Source: Botryllus schlosseri
Lineage: Eukaryota
NCBI GenBank assembly: GCA_051294905.1
Contig: CM119373.1
Span: 4,156,001 to 4,220,000 of the forward strand
DNA length: 64,000 bases
Direction: 5' to 3'
Both the position numbers and the translations under genes were made by a program. Under the pieces are notes generated by a model. The model worked only from the letters and a program-made list of their open reading frames with translations. It had not been told where the DNA came from and made no database searches. Each line of letters begins with the position of its first letter. Positions within the stretch are counted from its first letter, which is position 1. This document shows positions 20,680-40,427 of the stretch, piece after piece.

Positions 20680-22810
20680 TTTTAACATAGCCTACTTAAA
20701 ACACCCATGAATTGTACTTTCTGAATATGATAGCAACTGACAGTAGCTAATAATAAAAAGCGTCAGAAAGCGTGTTAAATTTGAGCACATGTCTTGATTA
20801 GTGAAAATTTTGAAGCCTCTGCACAGAGCCGAAATCAGGGGCCTGGTACCATCGACCTACCAGCTTTTTTATACGGATCGCGAGCACCAGAGCTGTAAAA
20901 ACTAATGGGTATCAAAATCCACAATTAGAACTAAATTTCTTTTAAAAATCCGCAACTAACTAACTAAAACACAATGTACTAGGTGTAATTATACCGTATT
21001 GCACATGAGCTAAGAAATATTAGAGACAGAATCGGCATTTCAGGACACCGAGTTTTTGAATTGGAAATGGGAGGGGGTTCAATCCCCAAAATCTACCATG
21101 GCTACATCACTTACATCACCGATAACTCAGAGATAGCAATGCTGGTTTTATGAACTTCACATAACGAAATACAAGGATCGCGACTCACTCCAAACGACGA
21201 CAAGTGATTTTTAGTTGTTGGCAACTATATATTTTTTAGATTGCGCGACTGGACCTAAACCTGTACCTAAAACCTACACTAACAATTCATCTTCCCCAAC
21301 TAGAACTATAAAACTACACAAGAAACAGTATTAAGATGATCGTCAACTAACTAGGTTGGCAGTTGGTTTTATTTCCACGCAATCCGGCCCGCGACGCAAT
21401 TTTCAGTGTGGATAAGGGATATTCAAAAATTACTTTTTTTCTTAAATCGTACTAGCTACTTGATAAAATAGTTAGGTTACCTAATTTAAGCCTGCACACC
21501 AAATTTGCTTTAATTCCAGCAAGTAGCCGCATTGCTACAGCAGAAGAGAGTTTTTCTATCTATTATGTAAAATACATAATAAAAAAATTGAAAATTTTTT
21601 GTTTACCCCATGAAACTGTTAGGTTGTCTATAGAAACGATGTTCGCCAAATTTGATTCAATTCCAACCAGTGGAAGCGGAGTTATTGCCATCGAAAAATT
21701 TTGATTATCAATAAAATAGTATTTACGGTGACCACTTCTTAATAATCACGTAAATAGGCTACTATTTTATTCAAATCCAAATTTTTAACGAGGACACGTT
21801 TAAAAAATCCTAAACGTTAGTTGATCGAAACTGAAAACAGTGACTTTGAAATATTTACTGGGAATTTTGTTGTGCTGACTAAACTAAAAAAAGGTCATCA
21901 TTCTGATTCGTCCGTCGTCATTCGTTCAACTCCCGAATGACCCACTTTTTTGGTGACTTTTGTGGTGTTGACTAAAAAAGTAAATGTAGAGCATCACTTT
22001 GATTTGACTCGAACTTCCGCATCACCTGATTCACGTCATTTTTGCCGATTTTCATTTCAGTTTAGGACGAATCCTCCTAAACGAGTACGTATTGTAACCC
22101 TTTCCTAAATCGACAGTAGTCGATTGTACAGTAGTACACGCACATTCGTGCAGTAGGCTACAGTGTCGGTTTCCCATCGCCATGATATCCACATATGCGA
22201 CCGTTGACAGCTGCTTAGAACAATTGAGAGCCACATATGTTACATGTCTGCCGCTTAGGAATATTGCTAATGTTATGTCGTCCTTCAGTGACATGTCCGT
22301 GGTTGTCGGAATATTGTGTTTACCGAACAACAACATAGACAGCAGCAACAAAATCAGCTTGACAAGGAATAGGCTTCCAATGAATTGTCAATGAATCATG
22401 CAAAGCAGCATTACCGCGAACATGAATTCTAATCTGATGATTGAAAGTATTCCATATTAGCCAACGGCTACCATCCACCTAGCCTACTTGTTATATTTTA
22501 TCACCTGGTCCGCGAGTACAAAGGTTACAGATCCATGGCCTACTAAACTATTAGAGGAACTTTTTGCCGTTAGATAGCGCTATGGTGATACCATCAGTCT
22601 AGGTGCTGTATCACTGTAATTCCGGGAGCTGGTTGCCACGTTAATGAACACTTTCAACGCTGAAGATAAGGTTTTGCATTGTCTATGAAAAGATGGGCAC
22701 CTTTTTCGAATCATGCTGCAAATGGTCTACGTTGGTAATACTCTTCGGAGGTAGGTATATTTATCTGTTGAACCTGCATTTATCTTAAATATAATGATGT
22801 GGGCGACGTG

Positions 22811-22915
22811 AGTAGTGTAGGTACCTGGATTTCGTGCAGGCCAATCAAATTTCGCCACGTCGCCTTAATTGCCACGCCTACATTGCCACATCATCCGCCC
22901 ATTGCCGCACCTATA
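22811..22915 (+). repeat. Left terminal inverted repeat (TGCCACATCATC subrepeats continue to ~23030)
   Basis: Exact reverse complement of 38262-38366; imperfect for a further ~16 bp. Confidence 0.95.
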
Positions 22916-23284
22916 GGACACCCCTTGCCACATCATCCGCCCATTATCGCACCTATATGACGCCCATTGCCACATCATCTACGCCACATCATCAAGCGCC
23001 ACGCCTATAGTGCCACATCATCCATCCACAATATCATGATTATGCGTACTGAGCTGTTTTTGAGAATATGAATTCCCCTGTAATACACTAAACGTTGAAC
23101 TAGATTTCATAACGTCATCACAGAGGAATCAACCAACGATATTGATCTAGGTTTTAGGTTTGAAGCCTGTAGTCACCGCATTTCATACGATTCAGCGCTT
23201 TTCATGTCTCCTCACACTTTACTCAGTCTCATTGAAATAGCATTGCATAGTGTATCAGTTCATTTATTTCGAAAAAAGAGCATA

Positions 23285-23767
23285 TCAATGATATCGTTGA
23301 ACGTTATTGCGTCGATTCGCGTGCTGAAATCCTCCGGATCGGTCGATGTTTCGAGGTAGTCCGCTTTGATGCCATCCGACGCTGCGATCCGAGTTCTTGC
23401 GTTCGATCTGACCGTTTTGTTTGATGTAGCGATCACTGGCTTGTAGTATAAACGATACGAGCGGAAGGTCGGGATTAGGAACAACTACGCTGGGCGAATA
23501 GATGACGAATTCGTCAGCCGGATTCAGAGGTTGATAATGCTCGATCCCGTCGCGAGTATACGTAACGACCAAACCTCCTTCATGCTTCAGAGTGGCTCGA
23601 TATTTCTGAATGACCCCGCTTGTGGCATGTACAAAGAGTTGATCCGAGGTCAATTCTGCTCCATTCGAAGCTTCGATACGTAATTTTGTGATGTCATTAA
23701 AAAGATACAAGTCTTTTCTATAGGGCCCCTGGGCCAGAATAGTATCTCCACGGATTGCTAGACTCAT
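23285..23767 (-). CDS. Hypothetical Polinton cargo protein (~160 aa from MSLAIRGD...)
   Basis: ATG at 23767, 17 bp after the IAP stop; globular-looking composition; minus-strand AATAAA just downstream. No family recognised; the C-terminus may be frameshifted. Confidence 0.5.
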   Translation of the reverse strand: MSLAIRGDTILAQGPYRKDLYLFNDITKLRIEASNGAELTSDQLFVHATSGVIQKYRATLKHEGGLVVTYTRDGIEHYQPLNPADEFVIYSPSVVVPNPDLPLVSFILQASDRYIKQNGQIERKNSDRSVGWHQSGLPRNIDRSGGFQHANRRNNVQRYH

Positions 23768-23783
23768 TCTTTGAAAAGAAATA

Positions 23784-24365
23784 TCAAACATAAGTACAAC
23801 AGTCATCACGCAATTCCACCTCGCCATCAAATTTAGTCGAGCCTCTTCTTATATTAGGTGTCGCATAACAGACATTACGAATATATTGCAACCCCTTCCG
23901 CTTGATGAGAAAAGGACACGCAGGATAAAACTTTGCATGCTCGAGCCAGGGATCATCGCACGGCAACCAATTTTGAAACAACCCTCCGCATGAGAAACAC
24001 TTTAAATGATCCTTATAGCCCAAATAGAACAATCCGCAGTCTGCGAGCTCGGTTCCGGAGGTATTGATATTATCCGGCCACCGCATGAATGTGCTTAGTC
24101 TACGAGCATAGCGTGTCATGTTATAGAAAACGGGATCATTCAATGGGGAAACAGTTACATCTCTATGCTTCGCATAGCATTCACAAATCTTTTCCCCTCT
24201 GTTATTTATCATAGCTTGGTACTGTTCAATGGGACCCATCCGAGTTTCATCTTCGCCTATTCCTATGCTACTTGTGTTACCGATGCAAGCGCAGTTGAAT
24301 GTAGCGTAATTTGTAGGGTCCACACTACGCTTAGGTAGCGAATCGCTTTGATCAATGTTCGACAT
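23784..24365 (-). CDS. Inhibitor-of-apoptosis-like protein with a single BIR domain (193 aa)
   Basis: YARRLSTFMRWP...LADCGLFYLGYKDHLKCFSCGGLFQNWLPCDDPWLEHAKFYPACPFL is a full BIR with CX2CX16HX6C; no RING domain seen. Confidence 0.95.
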   Translation of the reverse strand: MSNIDQSDSLPKRSVDPTNYATFNCACIGNTSSIGIGEDETRMGPIEQYQAMINNRGEKICECYAKHRDVTVSPLNDPVFYNMTRYARRLSTFMRWPDNINTSGTELADCGLFYLGYKDHLKCFSCGGLFQNWLPCDDPWLEHAKFYPACPFLIKRKGLQYIRNVCYATPNIRRGSTKFDGEVELRDDCCTYV

Positions 24366-25939
24366 TGCTATCCGAATTGATATACTCTCATGATCAGTAT
24401 GCTTTATACCGATATTGAGCTATGCACCGTTGAAATATGTGCTTGGTACCGATCGAATGATAGGCCCCCTAGGTCGTATCACGGAAAATTAGAACGTCGA
24501 CTGCTCACAGAAAAAAGCCACGTAGCTCATATCCGTTCCTGGTACGTGTTATCAATAATTAGAATGTTAGTAAGAATGCCACGAGTACAATCACGCGGTG
24601 ATGATTAATACCTAAAAAATGACATCTTGACTCATGCATTAATTTAAAAAAATTAAACTATAGTGTATCGGAACTTAGTTTTACTTTACTGAGATTAGTT
24701 TTACTTTTCAACTAACTTGTCTGTCGATACATTCATTTAATTACGATCCCGAGAAGTCGGATCGATTCCCATAATATAACGATTCAGTGCCGACCTTATG
24801 TCTTATACTTTAGCTGACACTTACTCAGTCTCATTGAAATAGCATTGTATAGTGTACGAGCTCATTTATTTCGAAAAAGAGCATAATATATCAATGATAT
24901 CATTGTGCGTCATTGCATCGATTCACTTGCTGAAATCCTCCAGATTGATGTTTCGATGTCGCTTCACGAGTTCCATTCTTGTATTCATATATATCAACAA
25001 GCAGCTATGCAAATCCACAGCTTAGATAACTAGGGCTCTTGTATGTCATTAACATTATAGACAGCCCTTCGACGATATTCAACTGGCATTGATGCTTTCG
25101 ATACAGCGCAGTATGTATAACGTTACGCTGATCAATTCAATTTCAACAATGGGACCCCCGCACAATTATATGGTCGGATTTTCGTTGAATATTGACGACA
25201 CCCACAAATCGAAAGATCTCTTTTTCCTGCACATCTATGATGCAATTATCCTTCCAATGACTACGAATAACTTGAGATTCCGCAGGATTAATATCCGAAT
25301 CAAATAATACGAGCGTATCTTTTCCAGCTTTCAAAACTTACACTGACGCGTTCGGTCTATGTCGCAACACTACAATATGTGGCCATACAAAACGATGTAT
25401 AGTTATTTTTTGTAGTACCATCCCTACGACTTATTTCAGATCGCGGTTTACTGAGTAGAGCTTAATACTAATACCTGCATAATTTTTTGCATGTCTAGAA
25501 TAAGGGTAATTAAATCCATAGTAAAACGCCAGCGGCGACTAATAACGTTATAATGTAAGCTGCGACGGTGCTACTATAATGTTAGGAGCTATTAAAGCCG
25601 AATACGCTGAAGTATAGCATAGATTTTGCATATAAAATGTATACACAAATTTCCTGTTAAGGGTAGCCTCTGCGAAGCTGCTTATGCCTCGATGATCATA
25701 GTACTTATGAGCTATTGGATAGCGCATATACAATGTATCATATAGAACTTCGTCACTTTCGGATAGTACATATACCCCTGGGATAGAACTTAGACGCTAT
25801 AAAGATCGATGTTCGCCTACGAATTCTCGCTTTACTCATGTCGTATGCTCGATAAATTGTAAGTTGCGGCGAGCAACTCATTTTTAAAGTCCCTAAGACG
25901 CTATTGAAATGAACTCTGACTCGCTATTATCCTCAAACC

Positions 25940-26410
25940 ATGGAATTATCACGAGTATCACCTTCGCTCACTGAAGAAAAGGATGAAATTACATCCGGAG
26001 CATATTCCTTGGCGAGGAATTATATCATCTACGAACTCGACGACTCATGCGTTAAGGCAAATACGAAAGCAGAGAGAACCTTACGGCGAGTTGGGGATGA
26101 AATGTTTGAGCGACACCGAACTATCGTAAACGCGCTCTCTAAACGTCTTCGCTACTGTGATGTAGAAGTCGATGAAAAATATGAAGAATATTCACCCGAC
26201 GAGCGAATGTTCCTGATGATAGCTGATGGAATTTTCAAAGATACCCAAGAAAATTGGGGTAGGATTGTCTCTCTTTTTGTGGTCGCTAGCATTCTTGCTC
26301 GGAATAAGGAGGATGAACATCGCGGTGATCATATAGAAGGTATCATACAGACAGTTGGGAGTTACATTGGTAGTAGAAGACGAAAGTGGATAGCGCAAAA
26401 CGGAGGATGG
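25940..26410 (+). CDS. Bcl-2 family (Mcl-1/Bcl-2-like) protein, exon 1
   Basis: BH4-like SLARNYIIYEL, BH3 TLRRVGDE, BH1 ENWGRIVSLF, BH2 start WIAQNGGW followed immediately by the donor GTAAGC at 26411. Confidence 0.93.
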
Positions 26411-26655
26411 GTAAGCGATTTTACAAGCCTTACTAAGGATTTAGGAATTATTATCTATAGCTCGAGGTACTACGATCCCCAGAACCCTTATCATCCCTCG
26501 AACCTTAGATTCCACCTTATAATTTTGTTCTCAACTTTTCCCACAAAGCACTGTAATTTACTTTCCAAGCGCAGCGAACTTCGAATTACCTAACAAGTAG
26601 GCTACGCTAACTTTCTGTAAGATTTGGAAGGCTAACATTTTTATTATTGTTTCAG

Positions 26656-26775
26656 GACAGTTTTGTAGGATATTTCGATAACACAACATTCGGTAACAAT
26701 AAAGTTTGGAAGAGCCTCATGTTTGTTGGAATTGGACTGACGTCTATTGCAATGGCATTAACACGACAGCGATAA
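26656..26775 (+). CDS. Bcl-2 family protein, exon 2 (rest of BH2 plus C-terminal TM anchor); 196 aa spliced
   Basis: Branch point GCTAAC at 26631, T-rich tract, TTTCAG acceptor; translates DSFVGYFDNTTFGNNKVWKSLMFVGIGLTSIAMALTRQR*. Confidence 0.88.
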   Translation, partial: DSFVGYFDNTTFGNNKVWKSLMFVGIGLTSIAMALTRQR

Positions 26776-26993
26776 GTACAGCTCGAAAGGGCTTCAAAAA
26801 ACGCCCAACAAAACTTTCAAAGATTTCCATTCTTCAAAATAGATCGATCACGGGTGGCGTCAATAGTGGTTTTCGTTGCTATGGGAGCGATATGTTTACG
26901 TATAAGCAATATCGAAGTGCATTGAGTTATGGTTATTATAAAAGGATTGTGCTTGATGATGGAATTCATACATTGCCTTTATCTCTGTAATAA

Positions 26994-27611
26994 ATGGATC
27001 GAATACGTACATTGCATGCTCCGTTTCGGATGATCGTAGCTGGTCCGAGCAGTAGCGGGAAGAGTTATTTTACTTATGAGTTGGTGAAGAACGCAGAGAA
27101 GATGATTAGACCGGCTCCTGAAAAAATTGTATGGTTGTATAATAATTATCAGGCGTTATACGATAAAATGAAAGGGGTAGAATTTTCGCAAGGGCTCTCC
27201 GAGCTCAAAAAGTTACAGAAAGGAAATAGGCACGTTCTCTTGGTGATCGACGACATGATGACGGAAGCGAAAGAGGCCAGAGATCTATTCACTCGATACA
27301 GCCATCACGCAAAGATTAGTGTCGTGTTCATTTGTCAAAATTTATTCTATAGGGGCCAAGGCTTTCGGGATATGACCCTGAGCGCGAGCTATATCGTGAT
27401 ATTTAAAAATCCCCGTGATGCGAGTCAAATCAGTTTTCTTTCACGTCAAATGTTCCCGGATAAAGCCGGATTCCTTACGGAGGCTTATAAAAAGGCAACT
27501 CGAAAACCGTTCTCGTACATACTGGTCGACGTGACGCAAGAGACAGACGAAAATTATCGTCTTCGCAGCAAAATATTCCCACATCAAAAGTTGACGGTAT
27601 ATCAAGAATAA
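26994..27611 (+). CDS. Polinton DNA-packaging ATPase (A32/FtsK-like), 205 aa
   Basis: Walker A GPSSSGKS, Walker B LLVIDD, SHH...VVFICQNLF and FKNPRD motifs. Confidence 0.95.
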   Translation: MDRIRTLHAPFRMIVAGPSSSGKSYFTYELVKNAEKMIRPAPEKIVWLYNNYQALYDKMKGVEFSQGLSELKKLQKGNRHVLLVIDDMMTEAKEARDLFTRYSHHAKISVVFICQNLFYRGQGFRDMTLSASYIVIFKNPRDASQISFLSRQMFPDKAGFLTEAYKKATRKPFSYILVDVTQETDENYRLRSKIFPHQKLTVYQE

Positions 27612-27646
27612 ATACAGCTCGCGCTACAGATTTTAGGGCATTCAAC

Positions 27647-28055
27647 ATGTCGAAGAGGGGAAGTAACATATCTCGAAAACGATTGAGCGACTATCACGTT
27701 AAATTAAAACTTTTGAAAAACGCTAAAGGGAAACAGCGAAAAGAACTTTTATCGAACAATCAATTTTTAAGTTGCGTTTGCCAGTGCGTTCATAACTTGG
27801 CTTCGGGGACAGTACGTATCTCCCCGTCTAGAAAGTTGAGGCTTGGAAAACACAAATCCGATATCAGACAATTGCTGGCGCAAAAAACTCGCAGAGGTCA
27901 ACGGAGGGTGCTACAAAAGGGTGGATTCCTCTCAGGTATAAAAAATTATGATAAAATAGCAACTTTTTTCTAATCAGTCTCTTTTAGCTATATTAGGCGC
28001 TGCAATCCCCGTCATCGGGAGTCTGTTGGGTAAACTTTTCGGAAAGAATGCGTGA
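27647..28055 (+). CDS. Small basic Polinton core protein with a C-terminal amphipathic helix; predicted spliced (exons 27647-27935 and 27988-28055, 118 aa)
   Basis: KLKLLK...CVCQCVHNLASGTV...HKSDIRQL...QKGGFLS; removing GT..AG 27936-27987 gives QKGGFLSAILGAAIPVIGSLLGKLFGKNA*. Confidence 0.75.
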
Positions 28056-28386
28056 ACTACAATTCCCCGCATTTCGAAGCAAGGACGAATGGGAAAAGAA
28101 ATTTGATAAACATATATCGAAAATTAAAAGTTCTCCATTGAATGCTTCCGAGAAACTAGCTCTGTATAGGCATGGTATTGCTCAACTGAGAAACTTGAGA
28201 AAAGACGTAGACGCAGCGACCGCCCGCCCTCCCGCCGCACACACGGGGCTCGCGAGCCCCGTAGCGAAAGAAAAGCGCCCGCAAAAGAAACGCCCGCGCC
28301 GGATTCCACAACCTTCGTTTCCCTGGCTTTATAAGAGACAGCGTAAGCCTAATCCCCGTATATACGGGAAAGAATGGGAGACGTAG
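28048..28386 (+). CDS. Basic hypothetical Polinton protein (112 aa)
   Basis: Overlaps both neighbours in the compact gene array; K/R-rich C-terminus. Confidence 0.6.
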   Translation: MRELQFPAFRSKDEWEKKFDKHISKIKSSPLNASEKLALYRHGIAQLRNLRKDVDAATARPPAAHTGLASPVAKEKRPQKKRPRRIPQPSFPWLYKRQRKPNPRIYGKEWET

Positions 28387-29371
28387 ACTATTTTGATCCG
28401 AAACAGCCCAAATCGTATAGGGGCGCTTATTTGCAAAAGGAAAAAGAATGGCTTAAAGGACAAGATACTTATACTTTTCATTTTCCGTTACGTAAGAAAT
28501 TTAGGCGTGAACGTGTAGTGGTCTCCGGTATCAATGCTCAGTTTCAGAGCGATTTGATGGATCTGCAATCTATTTCAAAGTACAATAGCGGTTTTCGTTT
28601 TGTGGTGGTCGTGATTGATATTTTTAGCAAATACCTTTGGATGATAGCGATTAAAAATAAAACTGCTTCAAGTATGATTTCTGCTTTCAAACGTGTGTTT
28701 CGTGAACGCGTACCGTTAGTGTTACAAACCGATCAAGGTAGCGAATACACCAATCGCGCTTTCCAGAACTATCTAAAGGAGAACAAAGTTAGATATTTCT
28801 ATACGAGGAGCGAATTAAAATCCTCTGTCGTCGAAAGGGTGATTCGTACTATGAAGGCGTTATGTATCGATTTTTCACAAAAAATAACACGAGGAATTAC
28901 GTGAGCGCTCTCGATGACTTTACTTACTCCTACAACAGGACGTACCATCGTAGCATTGCCATGGCCCCAAACCAAGTGAATTCGTCTAATCAGGAATCGG
29001 TTTGGAGAAGACTTTACGGGTTTCAAGAAGCTAAACAACCCGACCTCGCTGTAGGAGTACCCGTCCGTATATCGAAAATTCGAAATCTTTTTGAGAAAAG
29101 CAGCCTACCCAACTGGCAACGGGAAATTTTCTATATCGCAGACGCCCAAAAGGGAGATCCCCCAATGTATCGCTTACGTGATTACGGTGGTGAAGTCATA
29201 CAGGGTAGATTTTATAGAGAGGAGCTCCAACGCGTAAAAGAACCGCAAACTTGGCGTGTCGAGAAGATTATAAGAAGGCGTAAACGCGCGGGACGAGAAC
29301 AGTATTTAGTGCGCTGGTTGGGATATGGAAGTGGATTCGACAGCTGGGTCGATAAGAAGGATATCGTCTAG
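28374..29371 (+). pseudogene. Retroviral-type (rve) integrase with C-terminal chromodomain, frameshifted at ~28860
   Basis: D-D-E motifs QSDLMD / LQTDQGSEY / SVVERVIRT in ORF 28374. MYRFFT...YNRTYHRSI and chromodomain WRVEKII...YLVRWLGYGSGFDSWV in ORF 28862. Only 2 nt (TT) separate GCG from ATG, i.e. one base is missing. Confidence 0.93.
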
Positions 29372-29534
29372 TCGGAACCTTTATCAGTTTTTGGCGCAAC
29401 TAGTAATCATACTGGTCATCGTATCGTTCTCTCTCTATAATCTTACCATTTCGAATGGGAACAAAGAGCTTTGGATATCACTGCTCTCCTCTTGCGTTGG
29501 TTATATGCTTCCGAATCCCAAGCTCAAAATATGA
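29325..29534 (+). CDS. Small two-helix membrane protein of Polintons (69 aa)
   Basis: Hydrophobic FLAQLVIILVIVSFSLYNL and LWISLLSSCVGYMLPNP, a pattern recalled from other Polintons; its stop overlaps the next ATG (ATGA). Confidence 0.65.
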   Translation: MEVDSTAGSIRRISSSRNLYQFLAQLVIILVIVSFSLYNLTISNGNKELWISLLSSCVGYMLPNPKLKI

Positions 29535-30340
29535 GCTACGTCACGCTATTTTCGAACGCTTCCATGGATAAATTTCCTGATAATACAACAGCGAGTTATT
29601 GCGTTGAACTGGACGTCCCGAAAAACGTGGAAGATACAGAAGTTTCTCTGGCTGAGATCTCCTTCCCTACGGATTATCAAAAACAGTATAGGATCACGAA
29701 GAATAGGTATGGGATCAGATCGCAAAAGAGAACAAGAAAATTTCATTTTAAATTGGGAGAATACGACTCGTTATATGACATGTATAGATCGTTGGAAAGA
29801 GACAATCCTGATGCAAAAGTAACATGTTTCCCTGAAAATCATAGTATGTCTATCTCTATACCTCATAACGAGGTAACCGACAAATTGCGACCAGAGACGG
29901 ACATAGGGCATAGTAGCTTGCTACGCCTCGGAGAATTGTACGGTGCTCTTATGTATAAGGAAACGAAGGAGGAGTTATTGGTGTTTCATTTCCCGAATAC
30001 TAATTGTACATTGTGGAATTATTTTTTCACCGAGGGTATCATTCATTTGAACTTTCGCATGCGACATGATCCGACTATCGATTTCGTTTATGTTCATTGT
30101 AATATCATTGAGCCACAAGAAGATAGCGGTAGGCTCTTACCGTTGTTACGCGTCGTACAGGTAAACGATCGTAAATCATTTTCGAAATATTACACGAAGC
30201 CTTTTTATTTCCCTGTTAATATAAATAGGCTAGAACGTGTCGAAATATCGCTACTTGATGAGAAGGGACAGAAAATACCCTTTCGAAGTTCTCCTTCGAG
30301 TGTTGTATTGCATTTTCGTAGACGGGGAGTTGCATTATGA
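29531..30340 (+). CDS. Minor capsid (penton/PX-like) protein 1, 269 aa
   Basis: YVTLFSNASMDKFPDNT..., VSLAEISFP, FVYVHCNIIEPQ..G..LPLLRVV, YFPV...IPF...VVLHFRR: Polinton single-jelly-roll motifs. Start taken at the ATG at 29531. Confidence 0.88.
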   Translation: MSYVTLFSNASMDKFPDNTTASYCVELDVPKNVEDTEVSLAEISFPTDYQKQYRITKNRYGIRSQKRTRKFHFKLGEYDSLYDMYRSLERDNPDAKVTCFPENHSMSISIPHNEVTDKLRPETDIGHSSLLRLGELYGALMYKETKEELLVFHFPNTNCTLWNYFFTEGIIHLNFRMRHDPTIDFVYVHCNIIEPQEDSGRLLPLLRVVQVNDRKSFSKYYTKPFYFPVNINRLERVEISLLDEKGQKIPFRSSPSSVVLHFRRRGVAL

Positions 30341-31059
30341 AATATATTCATATTACGTCACACGAGTCTGATTTTACTATCGATCTCGCGAAACCGATAG
30401 ATTCTGGTGAATGGGAGATAGGGCTTGCCGAGTTGTCTTTTAAAAATAATTTTCAGCCCACGTTCGAGCCTTACGACGGCTTATTATGGTACGTGAATGA
30501 TGCGGAAGGCGATAATAATTTTTATTATTTCCCGGCTGGTGATTATCATGATAAAATTAGTTTGATGAAGCGTATCAATCACGATCAGAAAAAAGCACGA
30601 TTTATTTGGGTAGATGGTTCTGGTCCGGTCTTGATAGCGGGACCCTACAAGAGTTCCAGCGGTCCGAGACTTTTCATGGATAATAGAAACCCCGTTCTCA
30701 GAGGAGGCGCTCGTTCGGAGGTAGAGCTAGATGGTGGATTACATAGACGAAGAAAAATTCACTTTCAAGGGGAACCTGTGTCCGTGACCAACGTTTTAGT
30801 TTATACGGATGTCATCACACCTCAAATTGTAGGTGATACGAGTGCGCCTCTACTACGCAATATCCGCGTTACGACAGGAATAGATGAATATCAGCATATG
30901 CTATTCAAAAAAATATATTTCTTTCCTCTGAATACGGAGCGAGTAAGCGAGATACGCGTTATGCTTCGTGATGATAAAGGCGAAGCTATAAAGTTTGGGA
31001 ACGCGCCTCTTCATCTCACACTTGCTTTGAGACATCATGAGGAGTCATTATTGCTGTGA
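30337..31059 (+). CDS. Minor capsid (penton/PX-like) protein 2, 240 aa
   Basis: FTIDLAKPI..GEWEIGLAEL, VLVYTDVITPQIVGDTSAPLLRNI, YFFPL...IRVMLRDDKGEAIKF; paralogous to the preceding ORF. Confidence 0.88.
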   Translation: MKYIHITSHESDFTIDLAKPIDSGEWEIGLAELSFKNNFQPTFEPYDGLLWYVNDAEGDNNFYYFPAGDYHDKISLMKRINHDQKKARFIWVDGSGPVLIAGPYKSSSGPRLFMDNRNPVLRGGARSEVELDGGLHRRRKIHFQGEPVSVTNVLVYTDVITPQIVGDTSAPLLRNIRVTTGIDEYQHMLFKKIYFFPLNTERVSEIRVMLRDDKGEAIKFGNAPLHLTLALRHHEESLLL

Positions 31060-31408
31060 TCGGGAGGCGTTCAGAAACTATTATCACCAACAGAGCGGTG
31101 GTGATATCAATTTTTTTCGGGGTAAAGTGCAGAGAGGTCATGGACTTGGAAACTTATTTCGTTCGTTCGGAAGAAGCGTTATGCCCCTAATTTCGAAAGG
31201 TGCAAAATCACTCGGGAAGCGTCTACTACATACCGGTGCGCAAGTAGCCTCTGATGTTCTTAATGGAGAGAATGTCGGTGATAGTCTTAAAATACGCGGC
31301 AAAGAAGCCGCTGGGAACGCTCTCGATTCTTTACTGAGAAAAAGAAAAATGCCAAGACGGGGTCGTAAAATCGCGAAAAAGAGACGTCGCAAAGATATTT
31401 TCGATTAA
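31037..31408 (+). CDS. Conserved Polinton core/membrane-active protein (cupiennin- or adenovirus pVI-like), 123 aa
   Basis: YYHQQSGG...QRGHGLGNLFRSFGRSVMPLISKGAKSLGK, an amphipathic helix after QxGxG motifs; basic C-terminal tail. Function is inference. Confidence 0.75.
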   Translation: MRSHYCCDREAFRNYYHQQSGGDINFFRGKVQRGHGLGNLFRSFGRSVMPLISKGAKSLGKRLLHTGAQVASDVLNGENVGDSLKIRGKEAAGNALDSLLRKRKMPRRGRKIAKKRRRKDIFD

Positions 31409-31457
31409 ATATATATTGCACGGCGATAAGCATCATTTGTTACTTGAGACTTGATAG

Positions 31458-32735
31458 ATGGCGGAGTTAATTCATGTACAGTCCCCGGAGGGGGTACATC
31501 CCTCATTGGATTTATTTCACATTCCCGCGACACAGACTAGCGTTGAAAAGAAAAGAATCATCAAGATAGCGCCGATTTCGAACAACTCTAGTGTGATAAC
31601 ATTCCGCTTTGAAGGCTCAGAAGACTTTAACGATTTGAGCGAGAGCTATTTCTTATTTCATTTACAATTAAAGAAAGATGGCGAAGCAATCGGACCCGAC
31701 GATGATGTTGGAGTTGTAAATAATATCTTGGATTCCTTGATTTCTCAACTACAAATTAAAGTCGCTAACGAAACTTTGAAACAAGATATAAAAGTACAGT
31801 GTTATTCGTCCTATCTGCACAATTTATTCGCTCCGCTTGACGTGCAAAGTACCACACTGAGGGCCTCAGGATGGAGAAAAGATACTTTAGGAGAAATGAA
31901 TACGATTGGTGGAACTAACGCCTCGGCTAACAAAGGATATTACAACAGGAGTAAAGCCTATAAGGATGATAACGTGGTGGAAATACGTGCAAAAATCCAT
32001 CACGGACTATGTCTGCAAGACCGCTACATCCTACATGACGTGCCTCTCGAGTTTGAGCTTACCTTGAATCCGAAAAGCTTTTTCATGATGGGAGATGCTG
32101 GCGGTCAATTCACCTTAACGAAAAAGGAATTACAGTTATGTAGCGTACGAGTCAGCGACGATGTGAAGACAGCGATGATGGTGAATGCCCAGGCGAAATA
32201 TCCGTATATCGACATGAAATTGATCACCCGAACATTTGCGGCTGCTACGACGCAGATAGATATCGGGAATCTATATAGCGGGACTCTACCTTCTCGCCTA
32301 ATCATCGGAATGGTAGCTACGAAAGCCTTTCAAGGAGATGTTACGAAAAATCCTTATAATTTCATACACAATAATATGCAACGACTCGAACTGAAACTGA
32401 ACGGATTTCTGATTCCGGAGGGAGGTTATGAGCTAGATTTCGATAAGGGTCATTACACGGAGCTTTACCATAACCGGATTGAGGGTACGGGTGCAATGGA
32501 GAGAAACACAGGACTCCTAACACCTGAAGAGTTCGCTAGTGGTTTCTGTCTACTGGTTTATAATTTGCGCCCTGATGATTTGGATGATTGCTTTGACTTA
32601 CAAAAGAGTGGTGCCTTAAGTTTACGGATCACATTTCCTGCTGGCGGGCTAACAGCGGAAACTACTTTGCTCTGTTTCATGGAATTCCAGAAGCTATTGC
32701 AAATCAGTAGCAGTCGTAAAGTGACCGTGCTATGA
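31458..32735 (+). CDS. Major capsid protein (double jelly-roll, PY/hexon-like), 425 aa
   Basis: LIH..S.E.....LDLFHIPATQTSVE N-terminus; VNNILDSLISQL; LPSRLIIGMV...AFQGD..KNPYNF; typical size and position before the protease. Confidence 0.92.
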   Translation: MAELIHVQSPEGVHPSLDLFHIPATQTSVEKKRIIKIAPISNNSSVITFRFEGSEDFNDLSESYFLFHLQLKKDGEAIGPDDDVGVVNNILDSLISQLQIKVANETLKQDIKVQCYSSYLHNLFAPLDVQSTTLRASGWRKDTLGEMNTIGGTNASANKGYYNRSKAYKDDNVVEIRAKIHHGLCLQDRYILHDVPLEFELTLNPKSFFMMGDAGGQFTLTKKELQLCSVRVSDDVKTAMMVNAQAKYPYIDMKLITRTFAAATTQIDIGNLYSGTLPSRLIIGMVATKAFQGDVTKNPYNFIHNNMQRLELKLNGFLIPEGGYELDFDKGHYTELYHNRIEGTGAMERNTGLLTPEEFASGFCLLVYNLRPDDLDDCFDLQKSGALSLRITFPAGGLTAETTLLCFMEFQKLLQISSSRKVTVL

Positions 32736-33187
32736 ACGGGGATGAAATAGACCAAATATTGTGGTGCTGCGAGTCAACAAAACATATTTTCCTTGGCACA
32801 TTTCCTATCGATCGACTGCCGAGGCGACCCCCTCCTCCTTATGCTATCGTGATCAATTATGACGAAGCTCGAAAAATCGGAAGTCACTGGATATGCATTT
32901 ACGCGGATGAGGATGAGACACATTTTCACGATAGTTTTGGCTTAATGCCACTGAAATACGAGATTGCCTGCTTTATAGAACCAGAAAATTATACCTGCTC
33001 TATAAAGCGTCTGCAGCACAAACGTTCCAGAGCTTGCGGTCATCATTGTCTAAGCTTTATCGTCCATAAGGCGCGCGGATGGAGTACGGAACGTTATTTA
33101 AATTCCTTCGGTGAAGATCATCGCAAGAATGATTCGATCGTGCGACGCTTCGTCAAGGAGCTGAAGCAAGAATATGAAATTGTGTAA
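32732..33187 (+). CDS. Adenain-like cysteine (maturation) protease, 151 aa
   Basis: IVINYD...GSHW (His), HDSFG (Asp), LQ...ACGHHC (Gln, Cys); AATAAA at ~33199. Confidence 0.93.
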   Translation: MNGDEIDQILWCCESTKHIFLGTFPIDRLPRRPPPPYAIVINYDEARKIGSHWICIYADEDETHFHDSFGLMPLKYEIACFIEPENYTCSIKRLQHKRSRACGHHCLSFIVHKARGWSTERYLNSFGEDHRKNDSIVRRFVKELKQEYEIV

Positions 33188-33574
33188 ATGTATATGCGAA
33201 TAAAATCAATAGTTTCAAAGTTTGCTTAGTACGTTTAAGGGCGATATTCGCTACGTTCATTATAGCAATCATCTCAAAGTAGTAGACTCTAAATCAGCAG
33301 TAGCGACTTGCTTTCGGTTAGGTGATAGTGGCTACATATTACCATTATCTAGCAAGAACCAGGAATTTGTATTGAGTGACTTCGCTCCTACAGTAAACGC
33401 AGCTTACATTACGGCGGTACTGAACATCGAGTAATAAGTGGGACTATGCAGGCTACCCTTAATACGAATTTGCATTTTGCTGGTACAATCTATGCTATAG
33501 TTGAGCGACTTTGATACGACCTCGGCACACTTCTTTGATATAGCTGCGCAAAGATGTAGCCTTGAACGCTGGCT

Positions 33575-36500
33575 TGCCTTGTCATTATATGCTTGTAACT
33601 AGTTCCAGGCTTGCGGTGCTAGTCTTCTTGGCTGCATGAAATAGGATGTTTCAGCTTAAAACTCAACGCATTAGCATGCCGAATTTGTAACCATGGCGAG
33701 ATTCGAGTATTAAGCGAGGCTAGATAGTCTACCCTTGACAGAGAACTTGCATATACATTCGAATTTATGCGACTTCGGCTATATTGCCGGTTAACATTAT
33801 AGCCGTGCACAGAACTCATTATTACGTTATTAGGTATTTAAATGATGCGATATAGGGGAAATCTCGGTGTAATTCAATCTGCGCGCATTATCCATGTATG
33901 CTCCAATGCGTTTTGCGGCTTTAGTATAGGTATTGGATCTAATATATTCTATAAAACATGTACGTTGCTATATATTTATCTTAATCCGAAGTGCATTGCT
34001 GCATCGAAAAATTATAGCTATATGCGGTACGCTGTCGATTTTTCAATATTAGTCAAGAAATGAAATAGCCCACCTTCAGTGTTGCGTAATCTGCCTTGTC
34101 ATTATATGCTTGTAACTAGTTCCAGGCTTGCGGTGCTAGTCTTCTTGGCTGTGTGAAATAGGATGTTTCAGCTTAAAACTCAACGCATTAGCATGCCTAA
34201 TTTATAACCACAGCGAGATTCGAGTAATAACCGAGCCTAGATAGTCTACCTTTAACAGAAAACTTGCATATACATTCGAATTTATGCGACTTCGGCTATA
34301 TTGTCGGTTAACATTATAGCCGTGCACAGAACTCATTATTACGTTATTAGGTATTTAAATGATGCGATATAGGGGAAATCTCGGTGTAATTCAATCTGCG
34401 CGCATTATCCATGTATGCTCCAATGCGTTTTGCGGCTTTAGTATAGGTATTGGATCTAATATATTCTATAAAACATGTACGTTGCTATATATTTATCTTA
34501 ATCCGAAGTGCATTGCTGCATCGAAAAAATTATAGCTATATGCGGTACGCTGTCGATTTTTCAATATTAGTCAAGAAATGAAATAGCCCACCTTCAGTGT
34601 TGCGTAATCTGCCTTGTCACTATATGCTTGTTCCGGGCTTGCTTGCGGTACTAGTCTTCTTGGCTGCGTGAAATAGGATGTTTCAGCTTAAAACTCAACG
34701 CATTAGCATGCCTAATTTATAACCACAGCGAGATTCGAGTAATAACCGAGCCTAGATAGTCTACCTTTAACAGAAAACTTGCATATACATTGGAATTTGT
34801 GCGACTTCGGCTATATTGTCGGTTAACATTATAGCCGTGCACAGAACTCATTATTACGTTATTAGGTATTTAAATGATGCGATATAGGGGAAATCTCGCT
34901 GTAATTCAATCTGTGCTCATTATCCATGTATGCTCCAATGCGTTTTGCGGCTTTAGTATAGGTATTGGATCTAATATATTCTATAAAACATCTACGTTGC
35001 TATATATTATATATCTTAATCCTAAGTGCATTGCTGCATTGAAAAATTATAGCTATATGCGGTACGCTGTCGATTTTTCAGTATACTCAAGAAATGAAAT
35101 AGCTCATCTTCAGTGTTGCGTAATCTGCCTTGTCACTATATGCTTGTTCCGGGCTTGCTTGCGGTACTAGTCTTCTTGGCTGCGCGAAATAGGATGTTTC
35201 AGCTTAAAACTCAACGCATTAGCATGCCTAATTTATAACCACAGCGAGATTCGAGTAATAACCGAGCCTAGATAGTCTACCTTTAACAGAAAACTTGCAT
35301 ATACATTCGAATTTGTGCGACTTCGGCTATATTGTCGGTTAACATTATAGCCGTGCACAGAACTCATTATTACGTTATTAGGTATTTAAATGATGCGGTA
35401 TAGGGGAAATCTCGCTGTAATTCAATCTGTGCGCATTATCCATGTATGCTCCAATGCGTTTTGCGGCTTTAGTATAGGTATTGGATCTAATATATTCTAT
35501 AAAACATGTACGTTGCTATATATTTATCTTAATCCGAAGTGCATTGCTGCATCGAAAAATTATAGCTATATGCGGTACGCTGTCGATTTTTCAATATTAG
35601 TCAAGAAATGAAATAGCCCACCTTCAGTGTTTCGTAATCTGCCTTGTCATTATATGCTTGTTCCGGCCTTGCTTGCGGTGCTAGTCTTCTTGGCTGCGTG
35701 AAATAGGATGTTTCAGCTTAAAACTCAACGCATTAGCATGCCTAATTTATAACCACAGCGAGATTCGAGTAATAACCGAGCCTAGATAGTCTACCTTTAA
35801 CAGAAAACTTGCATATACATTCGAATTTGTGCGACTTCGGCTATATTGTCGGTTAACATTATAGCCGTGCACAGAACTCATTATTACGTTATTAGCTATT
35901 TAAATGATGCGATATAGGGGAAATCTCGCTGTAATTCAATCTGTGCGCATTATCCATGTATGCTCCAATGCGTTTTGCGGCTTTAGTATAGGTATTGGAT
36001 CTAATATATTCTATAAAACATCTACGTTGCTATATATTATATATCTTAATCCTAAGTGCATTGCTGCATTGAAAAATTATAGCTATATGCGGTACGCTGT
36101 CGATTTTTCAGTATACTCAAGAAATGAAATAGCCCACCTTCAGTGTTGCGTAATCTGCCTTGTCACTATATGCTTGTTCCGGGCTTGCTTGCGGTACTAG
36201 TCTTCTTGGCTGCGCGAAATAGGATGTTTCAGCTTAAAACTCAACGCATTAGAATGCCTAATTTATAACCACAGCGAGATTCGAGTAATAACCGAGCCTA
36301 GATAGTCTACCTTTAACAGAAAACTTGCATATACATTCGAATTTGTGCGACTTCGGCTATATTGTCGGTTAACATTATAGCCGTGCACAGAACTCATTAT
36401 TACGTTATTAGGTATTTAAATGATGCGGTATAGGGGAAATCTCGCTGTAATTCAATCTGTGCGCATTATCCATGTATGCTCCAATGCGTTTTGCGGCTTT

Positions 36501-37436
36501 AGTATAGGTATTGGATCTAATATATTCTATAAAACATGTACGTTGCTATATATTTATCTTAATCCGAAGTGCATTGCTGCATCGAAAAATTATAGCTATA
36601 TGCGGTTCGCTGTCGATTTTTCAATATTAGTCAAGAAATGAAATAGCCCACCTTCAGTGTTGCGTAATCTGCCTTGTCATTATATGCTTGTTCCGGCCTT
36701 GCTTGCGGTGCTAGTCTTCTTGGCTGCGTGAAATAGGATGTTTCAGCTTAAAACTCAACGCATTAGCATGCCTAATTTATAACCACAGCGAGATTCGAGT
36801 AATAACCGAGCCTAGATAGTCTACCTTTAACAGAAAACTTGCATATACATTCGAATTTGTGCGACTTCGGCTATATTGTCGGTTAACATTATAGCCGTGC
36901 ACAGAACTCATTATTACGTTATTAGCTATTTAAATGATGCGATATAGGGGAAATCTCGGTGTAATTCAATCTGCGCCCATTATCCATGTATGCTCCAATG
37001 CGTTTGCGGCTTTAGTATAGGTATTGGATCTAATATATTCTATAAAACATCTACGTTGCTATATATTATATATCTTAATCCGAAGTGCATTGCTGCATTG
37101 AAAAATTATAGCTATATGCGGTACGCTGTCGATTTTTCAGTATAGTCAAGAAATGAAATAGCCCACCTTCAGTGTTGCGTAATCTGCTTTGTCACTATAT
37201 GCTTGTTCCGGGCTTGCTTGCGGTACTAGTCTTCTTGGCTGCGTGAAATAGGATGTTTCAGCTTAAAACTCAACGCATTAGCATGCCTAATTTATAACCA
37301 CAGCGAGATTCGAGTAATAACCGAGCCTAGATAGTCTACCTTTAACAGAAAACTTGCATATACATTCGAATTTGTGCGACTTCGGCTATATTGCCGGTTA
37401 ACATTATAGCCACGCACAGAACTCATTATTACGTTA
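33575..37436. repeat. Tandem array of ~515-bp units (~7.5 copies) inside the Polinton
   Basis: Anchor ATGATGCG recurs at 33842, 34359, 34874, 35390, 35904, 36420 and 36934; near-identical units in two alternating variants. Confidence 0.97.
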
Positions 37437-38261
37437 GCTATTGGAGAAATCTCAACGTAAATCAATCTGCGTTCACAATTCGCGTAAGCTAATGCTGCAT
37501 CGAGAAATTATAGCTACATTTAGTTTAAATTGGCACGAAAATACATTGATCTTACCTTATGCCTGCGATGCCTGCATCCCTGCGCACATGGCAATACTTG
37601 TAATAGAAATGTGAAGTTTTCAGAATGCGAATTGCTTTACGTCGGAACTAAACATTCTAATTCGTAACGCCAGCGCGGCGTTTTCTTGGAAACGCAACTT
37701 TATTTAGAATGTTCTAATTCACTTTGTCGATGTGGCGCAACTTTTTTGGAATCGTAAGCAACTGTATTCGTGGCACATTTACACGCGTCAATTTCTTGGA
37801 ATAGTATTCAGCAATATGCGCGTGAGCTTTCGCGTCATTGTAGACATTTATGGTGGCGATATCTGCATTATCAAGTTGCATTCGCAGAATTCCTCAAAAT
37901 CATTGACTAATTAATGATGACACAGGTGTTATAAGTGCACACGAACATAGTCTTACATTTATGTGTTATTACTCGAAAAAGGTGTTGTCTCGGAATTTAA
38001 GAGAGAATCGGCGGTTATATTCTCAAAACAGCTCAATACGGCTAGTTTGCTCAATAGCCTGGTGGTGAGCGATGTGAAATTATACCCAACCAAACCAGGT
38101 TCGATTCTAGCTTAGGTAAGTTTTGACGTGGCAATGAGTGACATAGGTGTAGCAATCGACATCGCGCGGGTTGATGATGTGCAGCGTATAGATGCGGCAA
38201 TCAATGCGGTGATGATGTGGCAATGGATGATGTGGCACTATAGACGTGGCAATGGGTGTGG

Positions 38262-38366
38262 TATAGGTGCGGCAATGGGCGGATGATGTGGCAATGTAGG
38301 CGTGGCAATTAAGGCGACGTGGCGAAATTTGATTGGCCTGCACGAAATCCAGGTACCTACACTACT
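38262..38366 (-). repeat. Right terminal inverted repeat
   Basis: Reverse complement of 22811-22915; followed by the TSD GACGTG. Confidence 0.95.
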
Positions 38367-40427
38367 GACGTGCCCTATTGGCGCTTCAAGTTATTGTGGT
38401 ATGACATTATGCTGCTTACATTGATGGATAGTATTCGGACCCCTCTAGTCCGAACCTTAGTTACGCCCGTGTTTTAGGCTATGATACGACGGTGATCTTG
38501 TAATACTCAAACGCTAGACGTACTGTATAAAAACAGTGGGACCTATGTGAGTGCCTATTACGCGCTAGCTTTGAGGATAGTCATTGTTGGTAGTAGAATT
38601 ACGAAAAACTATACGCCTGGAGCACTACAGAAAACGCGGTAACAATAAAAATTGCAAAGGACTGCTACGCACACTCACTCAATCACCATGATACTTGTCC
38701 TCATGATGTGTACATCATCGAGGTAAAACAGATAGATGTATTTTAACGACGATACCCACCTTTAACACCGTAATGAGCCGCTTATGACTTACAATTTACA
38801 CGTGTAAGGCCATCACAATTGCTAGCGACAGCACTCACTTCCTCGATCGTGCGTACAGTCATAAACATTACGAGGCCATATCACTGTGTGTCAATTGCAG
38901 ACTGTAGGCATAAGAATACCATAGTTCTTTAGATGGAACCTGACGCCTTCAGCCCCTCGCGGTAGGTTCTTCACGCAAGTGATGTAATATTTATGTTGCT
39001 AAAAGCCGTTTGTTTTGGATACGGCCTTACAGTCGATACATCAATCGCTAGCTGGTATCCTAATACTGCGTCGCTGTTCGTACGCCGTCTTTACAACAAA
39101 ACAAAAAAGACTGAAGGAAGCGAATAAAAATAGCGTGTAAGGCGTGAAAAGACAGACAGCCGAGAAGAGAAGCATCTGCCACTGTTGTAGGTGGATGTTA
39201 GATTGATAAACAATACTTGGTCGTGTCGACATCCTGATATCTGTTCATTACACCCCGATCTGTCGTGTAATTTACCATCAATAGTGTAGGCCTACGTTGT
39301 GTGCCGCGAGCATATGAAAAAATAAAACCGCGGATTAAGGTGATAAGTTTGATCTACCGTATTACAACATGGGGAAGTTTAATGTTGTATGTGATGGGAC
39401 AATTGAAAAGAAAATTAGCAAATGTTCGCCTTCATAACTTGCCAGTAAAGTATACAATGTTCTTCGTTGGTGAATATCTTCCTATATCAATGCCCAGATT
39501 TCAACATCTAGAAACCGCAAACAATTACAAACTCTATACCACACAGGAACTGTGAACTCATCGAATATGAACGGCTGTAAGAAATCCTACTTTGTAAGTT
39601 GCGCACGCTTTACTTTATGCGTAGAGTGAATACTAATTAGCCCTCAAGTTTACCGGACTACGACCAGACATATCGATCGTGCCTTCCGTCACATGATACC
39701 CCATTTTGTCGCTTGCATTTTTATGTTATCCTCTGTTACGTTTCATTCAGTGTGCATGCCTCCTCTCCACATCGGCTAGGGCCTTGGCCCACGTATATGT
39801 TTGATGTCGAAGACTACTTCAGGTCAATTCGACACCTTCCTATATTTTCGTCGTATCGCAGTCTTGTGGTATTTTGAAATGATGAAATTATTATTAAACT
39901 GATCGTGACTATGGCTAAGACGTGGCGTATAGTAAGCAGTGGTCAAAACGATTTGATAGCTGTAAATAAACCAATGGGCCTTTGCATGACTGTTAATGAA
40001 ATGGATATGCAGAAATGTAATAAAACTATCCACATAGTGCAGACCTGACCATTCCAATATATCTGGCATTAGAGTTACACCTTGATCCGAAAATTCGCAA
40101 GGGTGCTATAGTAAGGATAGGTCCATCGTCGGTGATTAATCATATTACTGCTCTATTTCTCACAGGACATGAATGGTGAGACACAGCATTTTGTCAATGG
40201 ATCTACATTCAATACTGATTGTGGATTGTGGTGATGTATAAGACATTAATTTCTGATATGCGACAGTTGTCCATTTTCAAGTGTTGAACCTAACTGTAGA
40301 CTGATGTCTTCGACTTTTATTTCCAGACTTCGTAACATGGTGTTATGTAGGCCTGTCTGTAAACCATGTCTAGTTTAATCTGAAGGGTATTTTAAGCGTA
40401 AGTGTCAAGGTTCAAGTTTTAAAATCA

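Follow-up and report, generated by a model that had tools for sequence, protein, structure and literature searches.

A Bcl-2-like gene with a host-type BH2 intron inside a Maverick-type element of Botryllus schlosseri

A 64-kb stretch of Botryllus schlosseri contig CM119373.1 (the window, whose coordinates are used throughout; genome 495 Mb) contains a Bcl-2-like gene that sits 3.1 kb inside a Maverick/Polinton-type element. We found that this gene is divided by an intron directly behind the tryptophan codon of BH2, and that a host gene of the same genome, with an intron at the same position, aligns with the element copies through intronic and 3' flanking DNA. These results indicate that the gene was captured from the host as genomic DNA.

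A phase-0 intron follows the BH2 tryptophan codon

The Bcl-2-like gene begins with an ATG at 25940 and its stop codon ends at 26775. Its translation contains a BH3-like motif LRRVGDE (L-x3-G-D), a BH1 motif NWGRIV and a BH2 motif WIAQNGGW. The TGG codon of NGGW occupies positions 26408-26410 and is followed directly by a GTAAGC donor (26411-26416); a GCTAAC branch point lies at 26631-26636, with its branch A 20 nt ahead of the acceptor AG, and TTTCAG ends at 26655. Since exon 1 is 471 nt long (157 codons), the 245-nt intron is phase 0. Without splicing, the frame runs past NGGW through 60 unrelated residues to a stop. Exon 2 supplies 39 codons in frame, for the sequence DSFVGYFDN...KVWKSLMFVGIGLTSIAMALTRQR. 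Its hydrophobicity peaks in a stretch of 17 residues (Kyte-Doolittle mean 1.82) with basic residues on either side, and a C-terminal hydrophobic tail anchor is predicted. A preliminary description of this DNA had placed the donor at 26411, the branch point at 26631 and the acceptor at 26655 of a 245-nt phase-0 intron, and had reported both the loss of frame after NGGW and the restoration of GGW-DSFVGYF with a hydrophobic tail upon removal of the intron. Every one of these features was found at the base given.

Exon 1 matches the Pfam Bcl-2 profile (PF00452) over its whole length, residues 48-157 corresponding to profile positions 1-100 of 100 (E 5.1e-21, 75.5 bits against a cut-off of 31.4 bits); because this full-profile match ends at residue 157, the domain stops exactly at the proposed donor. 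At E <= 0.01, 185 PDB sequences match exon 1, and all those listed belong to the Bcl-2 family. Among solved structures, zebrafish BCL2L10 (E 4.2e-10) and Mcl-1 (E 6.1e-10) come nearest in sequence, so that the label 'Mcl-1-like' is fair. The best named relative is Styela clava 'bcl-2-like protein 2' (XP_039252627), with 49% identity across exon 1. Exon 2 matches residues 205-241 of this protein (16/37 identical, E 2e-9), and the match starts right behind the GGW of the RefSeq sequence. A word-indexed protein search with exon 1 returned no match, and a metagenome scan with a three-sequence query gave five relatives, all distant (24-33% identity) and of cellular type; in two of these GTGAGT follows the TGG, and three are continuous.

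The gene has many copies in the genome, and we used these to examine the intron. A DNA search gave 419 candidates, the 40 best of which were scored (10 at 93-100% identity, 30 at ~82%), and a protein search gave 576, of which the best 150 were scored; 50 distinct gene places were tallied after 11 loci duplicating an already counted place had been dropped. Among 30 aligned copies exon 1 is invariably 471 nt long, and open in 28; the donor GTAAG[CT] and the acceptor TGTTTCAG are present in all 30, and the intron measures 227-260 nt. This retention of exon 1 length and of both splice sites is confirmed as lying far beyond chance. Between the two families that these copies form, identity is ~87% in exon 1, ~70% in the intron and ~83% in exon 2, and the intron interior shows a Jukes-Cantor distance of 0.31 with ~21 gap columns. 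Across the 50 places, GT stands directly behind TGG in 48 (GTAAGC 32, GTAGGT 8, GTGGGT 6, GTAAGT 1, GTACGC 1) and an in-frame exon 2 follows a YAG in 46, with intron lengths of 58 nt (four copies), 183-184 nt (seven), 197 nt (three) and 227-259 nt (32). Exon 2 was undetected at L042, L066, L060 and L061. Exon length and frame are fixed and the splice sites are conserved, whereas the sequence between these sites varies freely. This is the pattern of an intron, and, as judged by the comparison of copies, the intron is real.

Two of the places where exon 2 was undetected belong to a second Maverick lineage, in which the gene for a capsid protein ~68% identical to that of the window lies 2.5 kb away and convergent to the Bcl-2 gene (L060:1432-1953, L061:1432-1953). 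Here no GT follows TGG, and the predicted protein stops nine residues past GGW and lacks a tail anchor. The reading of this gene as an intron-less, cDNA-like copy was rejected, because the sequence after TGG aligns better to the 5' end of the intron minus its first two bases and because no exon 2 follows.

Proposed expression and splicing of the element gene

We propose that the element gene is transcribed in the nucleus and that the host spliceosome would excise the 245-nt phase-0 intron, joining exon 1 to exon 2 in cis. The product would be a 196-residue tail-anchored pro-survival-type protein carrying LRRVGDE, NWGR and WIAQNGGW; it is likely to be anchored to mitochondria by its tail and to have anti-apoptotic activity. 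Acting jointly with the product of a BIR/IAP-like gene nearby, it would prevent the death of the cell during element activity. We consider this scheme as a whole probable, from transcription in the nucleus and splicing by the host to a tail-anchored protein of pro-survival type that acts with an IAP-like neighbour. Between families, exon 1 shows 0.086 non-synonymous (dN) and 0.423 synonymous (dS) substitutions per site, and the resulting dN/dS of 0.20 demonstrates, at the level of substitution rates, that exon 1 is under purifying selection.

RNA run X22 contains 97 reads over positions 26654 to ~27011, 16 of them with a loose 5' part. In these 16 reads the loose part holds a 25-nt spliced leader joined at AG/G of 26655/26656, and the short stretch ahead of the leader is what we take to be the end of a template-switch oligonucleotide. 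Read together with the AG that opens the match, the leader agrees in full with the 25-nt 'Chordata 1' consensus for spliced leaders in Table 1 of PMC3795323. Its 19-mer core has 372 genomic copies, as against 0 for a reversed control, none of them in the window, and the core is followed by GT in two of three sampled places. The host spliceosome uses exactly the predicted 3' splice site, in a paralogue ~97% identical to the window. The X22 reads extend past the start of the packaging ATPase gene (26994), and they may represent the 5' end of a trans-spliced mRNA for downstream genes, transcribed from that paralogue. The 19-mer itself is scattered across all large contigs; at the three of 372 places sampled (L069, L070 and L071) only the 25-nt leader is conserved and the flanks are not, which is unusual for spliced-leader RNA genes. 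Two further runs taken as RNA, X1 and X8, were set aside as uninformative on splicing: their contigs pass straight through the intron and behave as DNA.

Several observations weigh against the proposed mode of expression and against the picture of an active carrier. No read or contig in the RNA runs examined (X18 and X22) spans the 26410/26656 junction. Bulk run X18 gave 27 reads only, 24 of them lying no more than partly on the stretch, and shows no joint at the reporting threshold; its depth is 0.8-5 in exon bins and 0 in four intron bins (26418-26633), values too thin to count. At 10 positions the X22 reads with the spliced leader differ consistently from the window, and they therefore come from the paralogue. 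Moreover, the splice use seen at the acceptor is trans-splicing, not cis-splicing. For exon 2, dN/dS is as high as 0.62 when families are compared and 0.92 inside the window's own family, and the gene version at L060 and L061 has neither donor nor exon 2, so that the tail anchor is dispensable in at least one lineage. As for the carrier, the integrase gene of the window differs by one base in length from three other copies and is thereby frameshifted near 28860, all four copies compared have interrupted genes, a different set in each, and no PolB gene was seen in the element, with no open reading frame (ORF) of at least 120 aa between the protease-like ORF and the right terminal inverted repeat (TIR). 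We know of no free viral form of the element, and scans of IMG/VR, with exon 1 and the capsid protein as queries, gave no confirmed relative.

The preliminary description had further inferred that the gene is expressed through host nuclear splicing, and had named the 26410/26656 junction in RNA as a check. The acceptor side of this claim stands, as position 26656 takes a spliced leader in paralogue RNA; the joint between exon 1 and exon 2 was not seen.

We also considered whether the copies are functionless passengers, intact only through recent amplification. In favour of this, dN/dS within the window's family is 0.64 in exon 1, next to the 0.92 of exon 2, and element copies are decaying in other genes. 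However, the families have diverged to a dS of 0.42 while exon 1 keeps its ratio of 0.20, an exon 1 ORF of at least 150 codons is preserved at 48 of the 50 places, and in the palindromic relatives described below the Bcl-2 gene is the sole long ORF kept. Passenger status is thus unlikely in our judgement.

If exon 2 were not joined in cis, the Bcl-2 product would be tail-less or read through, and the AG at 26655 would act only as a leader acceptor for a downstream mRNA, that of the ATPase from 26994 onward. This would fit the spliced leader being the sole RNA junction at 26656, the continuation of coverage to ~27011, beyond the ATPase start, and the presence of a tail-less Bcl-2 variant in another lineage. 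Yet exon 2 is open, homologous and tail-anchored in 46 of 50 copies, from families whose introns range from 58 to 259 nt; it matches the tails of the Styela protein and of the host gene described in the next section right behind GGW; and the GT donor is kept in 48 of 50. Since a role as leader acceptor alone would conserve neither donor nor frame, we find this explanation very unlikely and retain splicing in cis as the preferred reading.

A host gene aligns with the element copies through non-coding DNA

One copy of the gene, on contig C14 (locus L031) and here termed C14, is single-copy and has three exons. Its flanks occur nowhere else in the genome, save for an interspersed repeat of short length and a single 87% copy on a small contig, and the 4-5 kb to each side hold no element genes. 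A maximum-likelihood tree was built from 37 distinct exon-1 proteins of this genome and nine outside relatives. In it C14 is sister to all 36 element-borne sequences (support 99/97), with a branch of 0.03 compared to 0.21 for the stem of the element clade, and the Styela protein follows as the next relative. The BH2 intron of C14 lies at the same position and measures 184 nt (GTACGC...TTGCAG). At the other end of the BH exon, C14 has an acceptor TTGCAG right before the point where the element genes start, and AAA where these have ATG. Another ~430 nt upstream lies an exon that begins MAAAT; in a search of three loci it aligned to residues 1-36 of the Styela protein (E 0.003, 45% over 38 columns). 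We take the C14 gene to be orthologous to Styela clava 'bcl-2-like protein 2'.

C14 and the element copies form one gapped alignment, which starts 25-110 nt upstream of the BH exon, spans this exon, the BH2 intron and the transmembrane exon, and continues ~120 nt beyond the stop. Ahead of their ATG, the element copies still show, in decayed form, the upstream acceptor region of C14. The retained intron and the homology in intronic and 3' flanking sequence exclude a cDNA origin; on this sequence comparison, capture took place at the level of genomic DNA. The preliminary description had proposed just this, and the comparisons of phylogeny and intron position with the host that it had named as a check came out in its favour, C14 being sister to the element genes with its intron at the same place after TGG. 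An intron that splits BH2 after TGG is described for nearly all metazoan bcl-2 genes (PMC7527217; see also PMC8998228), which agrees with the earlier statement that an intron behind the BH2 tryptophan is typical of the cellular family and with its designation here as host-type.

The simplest reading is a single capture of a 0.9-1.0-kb piece of host genomic DNA, in which the first exon was lost and a new start codon was made. According to this scheme, the ancestor of the element family would have taken the gene once from a three-exon NR13/Mcl-1-like gene, C14. The piece would have begun in the intron upstream of the BH exon and would have run from there through that exon, the BH2 intron and the tail-anchor exon to a point ~120 nt into the 3' flank. 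The first coding exon of the host would thereby have been left out, a new ATG arising two codons into the BH exon. Transfer in the opposite direction would make the element gene an old viral cargo, and C14 an element copy that was domesticated and acquired its upstream exon afterwards. This is highly improbable: although the tree is rooted only by outgroups whose gene context is unseen, the first coding exon (MAAAT...) is common to C14 and the Styela clava RefSeq protein, the short-branched C14 is sister to the long-stemmed element clade and not nested in it, and the sequence ahead of the element ATG is a decayed form of the acceptor region of C14.

A search for host Bcl-2 genes with a Bax-like protein returned the amplified family in all 150 scored matches. 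Beside the C14 gene, a repeat of ~260 nt (L031:225-487, reverse strand) has at least 40 genomic copies at 96-99% identity and is probably a young element resembling a short interspersed nuclear element (SINE) or a miniature inverted-repeat transposable element (MITE).

The carrier is a Maverick/Polinton-type element

The features of the element are collected in Table 1. Its TIR arms (22806-22934 and 38243-38371) extend over 129 nt and are 96% complementary. Target-site duplications (TSDs) of 6 bp were found in all three copies of which both ends were seen (GACGTG, ATGGTT and CGTATC), the copy in the window included. Three other copies, on other contigs, are collinear with the element, the homology stopping at its ends.

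Table 1. Positions of the features of the Bcl-2-like gene, its carrier element and four palindromic loci (window coordinates unless a locus is named)
Feature	Position	Strand	Evidence and remarks
Left TSD, GACGTG	22805..22810		Same 6 bp at 38367-38372
Whole Maverick/Polinton-type element, 15,556 bp	22811..38366		Both termini begin AGTAGT
Left TIR	22811..22934	+	Inverted-repeat arms; short sub-repeats inside
180-aa ORF overlapping the end of the BIR ORF	23285..23827	-	Kept in 4/4 copies; no Pfam/PHROGs match
BIR-domain (IAP-like) gene	23784..24365	-	Pfam PF00653, E 1.4e-18; ORF kept in 4/4 copies compared
Bcl-2-like gene, exon 1, BH4-like to BH2, 157 codons	25940..26410	+	Pfam PF00452
Phase-0 intron, 245 nt, GTAAGC...GCTAAC...TTTCAG	26411..26655	+	Sequence, copy comparison, acceptor in RNA
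Bcl-2-like gene, exon 2: linker, predicted tail anchor, stop	26656..26775	+	Styela clava match, hydropathy
A32/FtsK-type packaging ATPase	26994..27611	+	Pfam PF04665 (Pox_A32), E 8.3e-9
rve integrase with C-terminal chromodomain, two frames	28374..29371	+	Pfam rve, E 1.4e-13; Chromo, E 1.2e-8
Three ORFs, 269/240/123 aa, the last with a basic tail	29531..31408	+	No Pfam or PHROGs match
Double-jelly-roll major capsid protein (by model), 425 residues	31458..32735	+	AlphaFold2 and Foldseek
151-aa ORF at the position of the Maverick cysteine protease	32732..33187	+	H...D...Q...C pattern by eye; no family match
Tandem array, ~515-nt units	33600..37600		Periodic ORF starts, repeated BLAST matches
Right TIR	38243..38366	-	Inverted-repeat arms
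Right TSD, GACGTG	38367..38372		Pairs with left copy
Palindrome L046	L046:1220-10000		Arm at least 4374 nt; arm identity 100%; spacer 33 nt
Palindrome L047	L047:1-9996		Arm at least 4977 nt; arm identity 100%; spacer 42 nt
Palindrome L044	L044:2465-10000		Arm 3618 nt; arm identity 100%; spacer 300 nt
Palindrome L055	L055:3933-8264		Arm 2145 nt; arm identity 100%; spacer 42 nt

The 425-residue ORF is, by its structural model, a double-jelly-roll capsid protein. An AlphaFold2 model built from only two sequences failed, with a predicted local distance difference test score (pLDDT) of 37.8; eight sequences were needed to reach a pLDDT of 72.8 and a predicted template modelling score (pTM) of 0.75. 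With this model, Foldseek retrieved the major capsid proteins (MCPs) of Sputnik (3j26_A, E 2e-15) and mavirus (6g44_A, E 1.6e-13), and further matches were the MCPs of PBCV-1 and of the iridovirus SGIV, the top matches spanning E 2e-15 to 1e-11. By sequence, the ORF gave a weak match to Pfam PF21738 (E 0.02), and a PHROGs search of the capsid module found nothing. In the genome the capsid gene has at least 99 scored matches out of 273 candidates, with most frames open, and these fall into four lineages at 93-100%, ~80%, ~68% and ~35% identity.

ORFs stand at the places expected for an adenain-like protease and a penton protein, and neither matched Pfam or PHROGs even at E 10. From their position, the 269-, 240- and 123-aa ORFs may encode minor capsid or core proteins. 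Two small basic ORFs lie between the ATPase and the integrase. Where PolB is expected, the element has an array of roughly seven ~515-nt units, and similar arrays of differing length occupy this place in 4/4 copies compared. A genome-wide search with the PolB profile PF03175 gave 0 matches, the control being equally silent. No tRNA genes were found within the element. Near its left end, the BIR ORF and the 180-aa ORF that overlaps it (23285-24365, minus strand) have the same arrangement in 4/4 copies.

By its gene content and termini, the carrier belongs to, or derives from, the Maverick/Polinton (adintovirus-like) kind; it is endogenous, partly decayed and without PolB. The TIRs, the TSD, the capsid, the ATPase and the integrase accord with the earlier designation of the Bcl-2-like gene as virus-borne; this wording has to be narrowed, as the carrier is an endogenous copy with a frameshifted integrase and without PolB, not a demonstrated virion genome.

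Most other gene copies lie in inverted pairs

Outside the capsid-bearing elements, most of the other gene copies occur as convergent inverted pairs, 3-16 kb apart. All four inverted-pair regions examined are near-perfect palindromes with an intact intron-containing Bcl-2 gene in each arm, pointing at the centre (Table 1), and these regions have hardly any long ORFs besides the Bcl-2 genes. In each of seven pairs the two arms are 99.30-99.96% identical, compared to 97.7-99.6% between different pairs of one family. The TIR of the window did not match the palindromic sequence compared, and this comparison gives no link to Maverick termini. On contig C9, two palindromic units stand side by side in a head-to-head, tail-to-tail array with a period of ~6.2 kb. 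The spacers at L046:5594-5626 and L047:4978-5019 consist of degenerate TTAGGG-like (telomere-repeat-like) sequence. One 14-kb inverted pair has a 585-aa Mutator-like transposase ORF (L057:6548-8302; Pfam PF20700, E 6e-51) between its Bcl-2 genes, probably as a nested insertion.

These arrangements can be read as palindromic non-autonomous relatives of Mavericks with Bcl-2 as their main or only cargo, a reading we put forward tentatively and regard as possible, if rather doubtful. The amplification into hundreds of near-perfect inverted pairs, each with two intact intron-containing pro-survival genes that point at a short telomere-repeat-like centre, would then be non-neutral: the anti-apoptotic product, made via cis- and trans-splicing by the host, would protect cells from dying during the replication of helper Mavericks, and the satellites would be retained for this reason. 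As with defective adenovirus genomes, the palindromes would have arisen by copy-back in the course of protein-primed replication.

Relation to known systems

Both parts of this case have precedents. The vNr-13 gene of turkey herpesvirus (HVT079/HVT096) is a viral Bcl-2 with the two-exon, one-intron structure of its cellular counterpart (PMC7199394), and is a published exception that the preliminary description had left unmentioned when it stated that most viral Bcl-2 genes are intronless. Like the gene studied here, vNr-13 is a virus-carried pro-survival homologue of the NR13/Mcl-1 kind with its cellular intron kept, and it is present twice, in the inverted repeats of the virus (PMC7199394), as the Botryllus gene has many copies in inverted pairs. 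Its carrier is a large herpesvirus with a known infectious cycle, and for vNr-13 itself the transcript was sequenced and the function tested by knock-out (PMC7199394). In contrast, the carrier studied here is a 15.6-kb endogenous element known from integrated copies, and the donor locus is recognisable through non-coding DNA.

Homologues of anti-apoptotic Bcl2 and of IAP have been observed in adintoviruses, in a single sentence of Starrett et al. 2021 (PMC8502044). The same combination occurs here as a BIR and Bcl-2 pair near the left end of the element. The main text of that article gives no intron or splicing for the Bcl2 and IAP genes (PMC8502044). Adintoviruses are defined with a PolB gene, whereas the element described here is without it. 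Intact vertebrate Mavericks are reported to have intronless ORFs (Barreat and Katzourakis 2021, PMC8097293); they share with this element the TIRs, the 6-bp TSD, the integrase, the packaging ATPase and a compact capsid/protease module, and the text of that account mentions no host-derived apoptosis genes (PMC8097293). Unlike these, the Botryllus element has a cargo gene with an intron and a satellite array in place of PolB. A survey of full-text literature on Bcl-2 or Bcl2 together with Polinton, Maverick or adintovirus yielded nothing further of relevance.

Cellular NR13/BCL2L10/Mcl-1 genes have in common with the element gene the order BH3-BH1-BH2, the NWGR and GGW motifs, the phase-0 intron after TGG and the tail anchor on a separate last exon. 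The element gene differs from them in being 5'-truncated, with its first coding exon lost and a new ATG, and in its hundreds of copies on mobile DNA.

Since adintovirus Bcl2 and IAP genes as well as a spliced viral Bcl-2 are already published, the present case is an unusually well-resolved further example. It offers an unusually clean instance of the capture of a host survival gene by a virus-like element, in which the donor, the intronic break points, the lost exon and the new start codon are all legible, and in which capture proceeded as DNA instead of via mRNA. It also suggests that Maverick-type elements can bear spliced cargo and would make use of the host spliceosome, including its spliced-leader trans-splicing. 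With several hundred mostly intact copies in the Botryllus genome, the question arises whether such a load of pro-survival genes affects cell death in the host or serves the elements alone.

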